From the NCBI RefSeq assembly GCF_024502345.1, contig NZ_JALDNN010000001.1: a stretch of DNA of 64,000 bases, one strand, 5' to 3'. Positions 60,241 through 60,834 of this stretch are shown here, piece after piece (the first letter of the stretch is position 1; every line of letters starts with the position of its first letter). This DNA comes from Escherichia coli. GTDB taxonomy: Bacteria > Pseudomonadota > Gammaproteobacteria > Enterobacterales > Enterobacteriaceae. Made by a program: the position numbers and the translations under genes. The notes under the pieces were generated by a model. The model saw only the letters and a program-made list of their open reading frames with translations, made no database searches and was not told the DNA's origin.

Positions 60241-60353
60241 AGCAGTACCTCCTTCACAGTGGCGAGCTTCCTGTATAACGCAAAAATGTGACGGAGATCT
60301 ATATTTTTTGTGTATGTTTTGTTCAACCTGGATTTGGAGCGCGCCTCCACCAA

Positions 60354-60410
60354 AGCCGGATATACCTACCCGTAGGCCGGATAAGCCGCGCCTGGCGGCG
60401 CATCCGGCAA
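60354..60410. repeat. REP element in psiE-yjbT spacer
   Basis: gccggatatacctacccgtaggccggataagccgcgcctggcggcgcatccggc. Confidence 0.7.
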
Positions 60411-60509
60411 GACAAACCGCACCCAAGCCGGTAATTCAAAAATCACCCATTCAGGTGATTCCCAGCCACCAGCAATGCGCGAAAAATCGACAATGTTCCT
60501 CTGGAACAA

Positions 60510-60788
60510 ATGAAACGTAACCTGATAAAGGTGGTAAAAATGAAGCCTTATTTTGCTGCTTTGATGTTATCAGTCTCTGTTCTTCCTGCTTATGCTGGTC
60601 CGCTCGGTACTGCTGATAAAGCCGACCTACCGCAAAGCAATGTCTCCAGCCCAATGATGGCCCAGTCGCTCAGGCAACCAGACCTGCAACCGATATCGAC
60701 GGACAGTAAGACAGAATGTTTTCGCCTTTACACACCAGATCGCAAACCGGGGGTGAACTGCGTTCCTGATGGCTCAACAGGCCATTAA
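60510..60788 (+). CDS. yjbT: small predicted secreted protein of unknown function (possible start at Met 60540)
   Basis: 92-aa ORF with signal-peptide-like N-terminus MKPYFAALMLSVSVLPAYAGP; convergent with and overlapping the 3' end of yjbH by a few codons. Confidence 0.6.
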   Translation: MKRNLIKVVKMKPYFAALMLSVSVLPAYAGPLGTADKADLPQSNVSSPMMAQSLRQPDLQPISTDSKTECFRLYTPDRKPGVNCVPDGSTGH

Positions 60789-60834
60789 GAATGAGGGTGC
60801 CAGTGATTGCGAAAACTGGCACCCTTCCCATGAC

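Follow-up and report, generated by a model that had tools for sequence, protein, structure and literature searches.

The Escherichia coli gene yjbT is predicted to encode a small exported protein with a constrained C-terminal loop and probably begins downstream of its annotated start

Results

The spacer between psiE and yjbH contains the catalogued gene yjbT

We analysed a 64,000-nt stretch of Escherichia coli DNA (assembly GCF_024502345.1, contig NZ_JALDNN010000001.1), hereafter the window, in which the gene order is malF, malG, xylE, psiE (−), yjbT (+), yjbH (−) and yjbG (−). The spacer of interest, positions 60241–60834, lies exactly between the start codon of psiE (60240) and the stop codon of yjbH (60835–60837). 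An earlier note, made from the letters of the DNA, had described here a 92-aa ORF, identified it as yjbT and placed it convergent to yjbH and next to a REP element. All of this was borne out, and the spacer and its flanks have the following features:

59830–60240 (−): psiE, divergent from yjbT (Pfam PsiE, E = 1.3e-22; RefSeq annotation)
60376–60408: REP palindromic unit, preceded immediately by a partial REP-like copy (from about 60350)
60510–60788 (+): yjbT as annotated, an ATG ORF of 92 aa plus stop (PF17089; RefSeq WP_001295279)
60794–60825: GC-rich hairpin with perfect 11-bp arms (60794–60804 and 60815–60825) and a 10-nt loop, between the convergent yjbT and yjbH stops
60835–62931 (−): yjbH, convergent with yjbT (Pfam YjbH, 900 bits; RefSeq annotation)

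The ORF matched the Pfam model PF17089 (YjbT) over residues 1–92 of its 92 positions with 214.6 bits (E = 1.3e-64), the gathering threshold of the model being 27 bits. RefSeq names the product "periplasmic protein" and Pfam describes an "uncharacterised protein family". The K-12 counterpart, yjbT/b4620, occupies the same chromosomal place, and at 90% identity the window protein groups with E. coli YjbT in a cluster of 473 sequences. The feature is thus yjbT, a gene that is already catalogued in E. coli and whose product is predicted to be a small exported protein. Just before the conserved module described below, the window allele has Ser (STDSK), where the other E. coli and Escherichia sequences that we retrieved have Arg (STDRK). 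Of 5426 complete E. coli genomes, 5413 contain the 851-bp region with a coverage of at least 80%. One detail of the earlier description did not hold: yjbT was said to overlap the 3' end of yjbH by a few codons, but 46 nt lie between the two stop codons (60786–60788 and 60835–60837), and a gap of this length is also annotated by RefSeq in strain E24377A.

The flanks of the gene vary among strains. The segment at 58311–59786 (xylE) is lacking in some E. coli genomes, and in CP043414 and CP148423 malG is directly followed by psiE (loci L002 and L003). The REP unit at 60376–60408 is an exact match to the pattern GCCGGATAAG-N14-GCATCCGGC, which occurs three times in the window as compared with 0.01 matches expected by chance; its arms are 86% complementary, and we count it as a REP element. 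Rfam gave sub-threshold matches only to this element, all of them to the REP-derived naRNA4, and the Rfam search of the region found no known sRNA. REP content of the psiE–yjbT spacer differs between genomes (window 60340–60420; L003; L015): the window carries the full REP and the partial copy, a shorter and different REP-like insert is found in other E. coli strains, and Pseudocitrobacter has none. Elsewhere in the window, two further REP-like palindromes (GCCTGATAAG...GCATCAGGC) were seen at 2899–2931 and 3012–3044, 113 nt apart. A 47-aa "hypothetical protein" called by PGAP (WP_000487770; 60366–60509, −) runs through the REP element, is missing from the annotation in strains with other REP content and has no NCBIfam match; this ORF is probably spurious.

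The yjbT coding sequence is under purifying selection

The length of the yjbT ORF is no evidence of coding, because spurious ORFs of 80–100 aa are abundant near yjbT in the ORF list of the window. Substitutions between homologs are another matter. When the last 25 codons of the window gene were compared with those of the metagenomic homolog L004, the differences by codon position were 0/0/18; all 18 were synonymous and none was nonsynonymous, with synonymous divergence saturated (pS 0.96). The same codons differed from those of Kluyvera georgiana by 14 synonymous and 1 nonsynonymous substitutions, and dN/dS over the whole gene was 0.09–0.20. The coding sequence is under purifying selection, which is extreme over the last 25 codons.

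This pattern bears directly on the reading that the ORF is spurious and the region merely a REP-containing spacer with terminators. Such a reading can appeal to the chance ORFs of similar size that are common in the window, to the fact that yjbT has neither a characterised function nor an NCBIfam model, and to the doubtful 47-aa ORF that PGAP also calls on the opposite strand. However, the substitutions sit at third positions only, a family of homologs extends across five named genera, the Shine–Dalgarno sequence and start codon are conserved, and yjbT is transcribed in all seven conditions of the RNA-seq study cited below. At the level of sequence comparison, the substitution pattern between homologs already refutes the spurious-ORF reading, to which we attach practically no probability.

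Published information on the gene is sparse. The E. coli-relevant mentions of yjbT or b4620 that a literature search turned up were three: one in a table of FlhDC SELEX results, one in a table of text-mined associations and one in the RNA-seq study PMC3734233. The supplements available gave no proteomic, ribosome-profiling or iModulon data for yjbT, and the gene did not occur in the supplementary text, possibly incomplete, of one large proteome and ribosome-profiling study and of two transcriptome compendia. Some alleles are frameshifted or decayed; they come from a few strains of E. coli, from Shigella flexneri and from a single metagenome lineage (P0006, P0012, P0013, P0014, P0020; L024), so the gene is dispensable in some backgrounds.

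yjbT is transcribed as its own unit behind a conserved pair of inverted repeats

Directional RNA-seq of K-12 (PMC3734233) detected b4620 in all seven conditions as its own unit, and in four of them its 5' ends map to window positions 60488–60503. We placed the K-12 5' ends on the window by means of the intergenic length, which is 269 nt in both. The following elements lie upstream of the gene:

60442–60459 (+): inverted repeat IR1, ATCACC-N6-GGTGAT, 96–100 nt before the ATG in 10 lineages
60459–60464 (+): possible −35 element TTCCCA, with a 17-nt spacer to AAAAAT
60482–60487 (+): putative −10-like hexamer AAAAAT, proposed from its position relative to the RNA-seq 5' ends and from the hexamers of homologs
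60494–60508 (+): inverted repeat IR2, TGTTCC-TCT-GGAACA, 44–48 nt before the ATG in 10 lineages

A scan of the yjbT region for consensus sigma-70 promoters and terminators returned no site on either strand. We infer that yjbT is transcribed from a non-consensus promoter at about 60490–60500, and because no consensus sigma-70 promoter was called, an activator or another sigma factor may be involved.

Both repeats are conserved across the family. IR1 takes the form (A)ATCACC-N6-GGTGAT(T), its left arm being nearly invariant, and IR2 the form GTTC-N5-7-GAAC, the GTTC...GAAC core of which is invariant in the 10 lineages, non-syntenic ones included. The distance between the two is always 51–53 nt in these lineages, and most of them have an xAxAAT-like hexamer about 7 nt before IR2. 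It is the sequence of the repeats rather than their base pairing that is conserved: covariation was minimal, with one compensatory pair in 10 lineages, too little for an RNA structure to be claimed at IR1 or IR2. IR2 probably lies at or near the 5' end of the mRNA or serves as an operator, and IR1 probably lies about 35–52 bp upstream of the mRNA 5' end, where it would be a candidate regulator site or a weak bidirectional hairpin. Known consensus sites were compared with the two repeats by eye; those of CRP, NtrC/sigma-54, sigma-E, sigma-28, RcsB and MerR-type regulators did not fit in half-site order or spacing.

Two further observations were made in the spacer. Among the intergenic transcripts in the supplement of PMC3734233 is one of 61 nt on the strand opposite yjbT, at K-12 4238095–4238155, equivalent to window 60433–60493 (−). 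This minus-strand transcript would end at IR1 followed by TTTTT and could be a short divergent RNA or noise. Separately, a CRP-like site, AAATGTGACGGAGATCTATATTT, with a perfect TGTGA left half, lies at window 60284–60306, about 45–65 nt upstream of the psiE start, and is conserved in the Pseudocitrobacter locus. It fits the reported cAMP–CRP control of psiE.

At the other end of the gene, a strong GC hairpin directly follows the stop codon in every homolog. In the window, the RNA fold of the hairpin with its flanks has an energy of −32.1 kcal/mol. This hairpin has no T-run on either strand, and the terminator scan made no call on it.

Translation probably starts at the annotated Met11

The RefSeq annotation and the 92-column Pfam model both begin at the ATG at 60510. 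Comparison with homologs pointed to a later start:

60528–60534 (+): Shine–Dalgarno-like AAGGTGG, 5 nt before the ATG at 60540, from DNA alignment
60540–60788 (+): probable true yjbT coding sequence, 82 aa plus stop, from annotated Met11, based on homolog starts

Homologs outside Escherichia are 75–85 aa long, and their first residue is the equivalent of Met11. This start was found in the Kluyvera, Pseudocitrobacter, Buttiauxella, Shimwellia and metagenome homologs, to which CTGATAAGGTGGTAAAAATG is common; the 10-residue N-terminal extension that the PF17089 model and the annotation include is thus absent from them. In a three-way DNA alignment AAGGTGG was invariant, and AGG(T/G)G is kept in all lineages; the longer context CTGAT-AAGGTGG-TAAAA-ATG around 60540 was also invariant in the three-way alignment and almost invariant across all lineages. 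As for the ATG at 60510, it is confined to Escherichia, has no Shine–Dalgarno sequence before it and abuts or overlaps IR2. The published 5' ends (PMC3734233) leave a leader of 7–22 nt before 60510 and one of about 40–50 nt before 60540; in the K-12 coordinates of that study (U00096.2), these two ATGs are 4238078 and 4238048. Because the non-Escherichia homologs start at the equivalent of 60540 behind AAGGTGG and the 5' ends leave a normal leader there, translation probably starts at the ATG at 60540, on comparative grounds, so that the annotation would begin 30 bases too early and the product would be 82 aa long.

We weighed this against the possibility that E. coli really, or mainly, makes the annotated form. 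Within Escherichia, the ATG at 60510 is conserved in E. coli, E. albertii, E. whittamii and two further species, it is the start used by RefSeq and by Pfam, and the extension MKRNLIKVVK would just lengthen a basic n-region (net charge +5), all of which would be compatible with its use. Against it stand the missing Shine–Dalgarno sequence and the contact with IR2, the very short leader, and the absence of this ATG from every genus other than Escherichia while the ribosome-binding sequence and the ATG at 60540 are invariant. We consider the 92-aa form unlikely to be the main product. The earlier note had taken the 92-aa form at face value; the ORF is indeed present, but the comparative data favour the 82-aa product.

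The predicted protein consists of a signal peptide, a variable linker and a conserved C-terminal module

In the numbering of the 82-aa form, the coding sequence divides into three parts:

60540–60596 (+): predicted signal peptide of 19 codons, MKPYFAALMLSVSVLPAYA, with cleavage before GPLG (heuristic n/h/c-region analysis, −3/−1 rule)
60597–60710 (+): variable P/S/Q-rich linker of 38 codons (substitution pattern, alignment, pLDDT)
60711–60785 (+): conserved C-terminal module, TECFRLYTPDRKPGVNCVPDGSTGH, with Cys codons at 60717–60719 and 60759–60761

The signal peptide was called by a heuristic n/h/c-region analysis with the −3/−1 rule and not by a trained predictor; for a Sec-type signal cut by signal peptidase I, we looked for a positive n-region, an h-region of 7–15 residues and small residues at −3 and −1. 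The window protein has an n-region charge at K2, a 10-residue core AALMLSVSVL (Kyte–Doolittle 2.37) and the site A-Y-A|G at residue 19. The same layout was seen in nine of nine family members, with a net-positive n-region, a core hydropathy of 1.5–2.7 and a small-x-small site at residue 19 or 21, in agreement with the cleavable signal peptide that the earlier note had suspected. A lipoprotein was considered and rejected: the E. coli signal peptide has no Cys, which the signal peptidase II lipobox L-[AS]-[GA]-C includes, and in the Buttiauxella and Shimwellia proteins, where A-P-C is present, Pro at −1 is incompatible with a lipobox. The predicted mature protein has 63 aa, a mass of about 6.7 kDa and a pI of 5.5.

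Linker and module evolve very differently. Over the linker dN/dS was about 0.6, differences were spread over all codon positions, and only a few residues were conserved. Every invariant column of the mature protein falls in the last 25 residues, namely T58, C60, P70, G71, N73, C74, P76 and D77 among nine sequences, which together make up a C-x13-C arrangement with PGxNCxPD; the window sequence has all of them. An AlphaFold2 prediction from the nine-sequence alignment gave a mean pLDDT of 55.8 and a pTM of 0.14, the signal helix being the sole secondary structure. The linker had a pLDDT of 50–55 and is probably disordered according to this model, although such low values could also reflect the shallow alignment instead of real disorder. 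A PDB profile search with YjbT gave no relative at E up to 1, and NCBIfam had no matching model. The statement of the earlier note that nothing in the sequence identifies the function of YjbT agrees with these searches and with the low pLDDT.

The YjbT family is tiny and often lies away from yjbEFGH

Only 13 YjbT matches came out of an exhaustive HMMER search through 1.84 billion representative proteins, and when 5.8 billion proteins were searched by a word-indexed profile method, 21 clusters were obtained, 20 of which carry PF17089. Members with a named source come from Escherichia species, Kluyvera georgiana, Pseudocitrobacter sp., Buttiauxella izardii, Buttiauxella sp. and Shimwellia pseudoproteus; as a whole, the family is very small and restricted to a few genera of Enterobacteriaceae. 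A tblastn search of YjbT against phages found no match. In a plasmid collection, six E. coli records matched (0.65–4.9 Mb), none of which was predicted to be mobilisable; they look like mislabelled chromosomes, and no true plasmid carried the gene.

Escherichia, K. georgiana, Pseudocitrobacter and two of the metagenome lineages share the order psiE–yjbT–yjbH. In K. georgiana and related metagenome contigs, an extra gene for a 151-aa hexapeptide-repeat transferase lies between yjbT and yjbH (L012 6377–6832; L007 528–983; L024 1772–2227). A further metagenome lineage, P0063, is represented by a short contig on which yjbT is accompanied by the same hexapeptide-transferase gene and by a truncated gene on the minus strand. 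The gene to the left of its yjbT is not psiE, and its synteny with the psiE–yjbT–yjbH locus is only probable. In 5 of the 11 homolog lineages, yjbT lies in unrelated contexts, beside GH1/PTS genes, CsbD and NmrA-like genes, DUF2767, DUF2058/LysR, or AbgT/NUDIX genes. IR1, IR2, the Shine–Dalgarno sequence and the 3' hairpin accompany yjbT in the non-syntenic loci too. The copy in P0063 is decayed, and its first Cys, its KPG turn, both inverted repeats and the Shine–Dalgarno sequence are all degraded. This joint decay fits the view that these are functional parts of one unit.

The converse arrangement also exists in nature. In E. coli strain EC42405 (L002), psiE and yjbH are present and yjbT is absent. 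Its psiE–yjbH spacer (L002 1641–1762) measures about 120 bp, lacks IR1, IR2 and the REP element, and has a different hairpin, GCCGAATACGATTCCTGTATTCGGC.

These contexts can be set against the possibility, hinted at in the earlier note, that YjbT belongs to the YjbEFGH exopolysaccharide system as an accessory or regulatory part. The conserved gene order just described (for P0063 only probable) and the fact that both products are envelope proteins would favour such a link. However, yjbT forms a separate transcription unit that converges on the operon, five lineages have it beside unrelated genes, EC42405 has yjbH without yjbT, and YjbT is distributed far more narrowly than YjbH, as its 13 matches indicate. 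The adjacency of psiE and yjbH is itself backbone gene order, and vertical inheritance can explain why yjbT sits there. Because yjbT is convergent, separately transcribed and often away from yjbEFGH, a specific role in YjbEFGH export is unsupported, and we regard the accessory reading as very unlikely. The position of yjbT beside yjbEFGH would then be inherited synteny and not a sign of shared function.

Discussion

Taken as a whole, the data are best explained by yjbT being a genuine stand-alone gene for a predicted Sec-exported pre-protein of 82 aa with a constrained C-terminal loop, and we hold this account with good confidence. In the mechanism that we propose, the Sec pathway would export the pre-protein and signal peptidase I would cut after Ala19 (AYA|GPLG). 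In the mature protein of about 63 aa, a fast-evolving tether of 38 aa would then be followed by a C-terminal module of 25 aa under strong constraint. The two invariant Cys residues (C-x13-C) would most likely be joined by DsbA, because the predicted location of YjbT is periplasmic, to form a loop that presents the invariant PGxNCxPD turn. We infer that this disulfide loop would be the functional part, most plausibly as a binding epitope for an envelope partner.

The same layout could be read in another way, with YjbT as a pre-pro-peptide in which, after export, the linker serves as a pro-region and the active molecule is a disulfide-closed C-terminal peptide, about 25 residues long, that is set free. 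A 19-aa signal, a fast-evolving middle of 38 aa and a 25-aa C-terminus that stays unchanged at saturated synonymous divergence would suit such a precursor, as would the failure to predict a fold for the whole protein. However, no processing site is conserved, the residues before the module being SK, HV, RR, HR, HV, RV, LN and YN; Pfam gives no match besides YjbT; no export or processing gene lies nearby; and a tethered binding knob fits the layout equally well. We therefore consider release of the peptide improbable and keep the tethered loop as the preferred reading.

Two groups of known proteins provide a comparison. The precursors of the heat-stable enterotoxins STa and STb are Sec-exported pre-pro-peptides with a Cys-bonded C-terminal active peptide. 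YjbT resembles them in its length (~70–80 aa) and in that a signal peptide is followed by a variable middle and a conserved C-terminus with Cys residues, and both would be expected to undergo DsbA-dependent oxidation in the periplasm. It differs from them in that there is no sequence relationship, Pfam matching YjbT only, in having two Cys residues instead of four to six, in being a chromosomal gene found on no true plasmid or phage, and in its lack of a conserved processing site. With no toxin-domain match and two Cys residues in the mature part, an enterotoxin precursor was rejected; the likeness is one of layout only. YncJ and the DUF1471 group of BhsA and YjfN are examples of small Sec-exported E. 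coli proteins without an assigned function that are restricted to Enterobacteriaceae. YjbT is like these in being a short, signal-peptide-bearing, stand-alone envelope protein and unlike them in showing no homology in Pfam or profile searches and in having its own C-x13-C/PGxNCxPD motif.

A broader idea would combine the loop with the upstream repeats. yjbT might be a dedicated peptide-delivery gene in which constraint falls only on the loop of about 25 residues, which acts as an envelope ligand, and whose expression is set by a private, operator-like IR1/IR2 pair that moved with the gene from one chromosomal site to another in Enterobacteriaceae. We put this forward as a long shot; if true, the loop would be released or displayed as a ligand for a sensor or an enzyme.

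Beyond annotation hygiene these findings matter little, and they reveal no new kind of system. What they add to a known gene is a probable correction of its start (82 in place of 92 aa), a selected C-x13-C loop with PGxNCxPD, evidence that yjbT is not tied to yjbEFGH, and a conserved pair of upstream inverted repeats that could help in finding its regulator. As one of the E. coli genes that are still unexplained, yjbT should become easier to study with these refinements.
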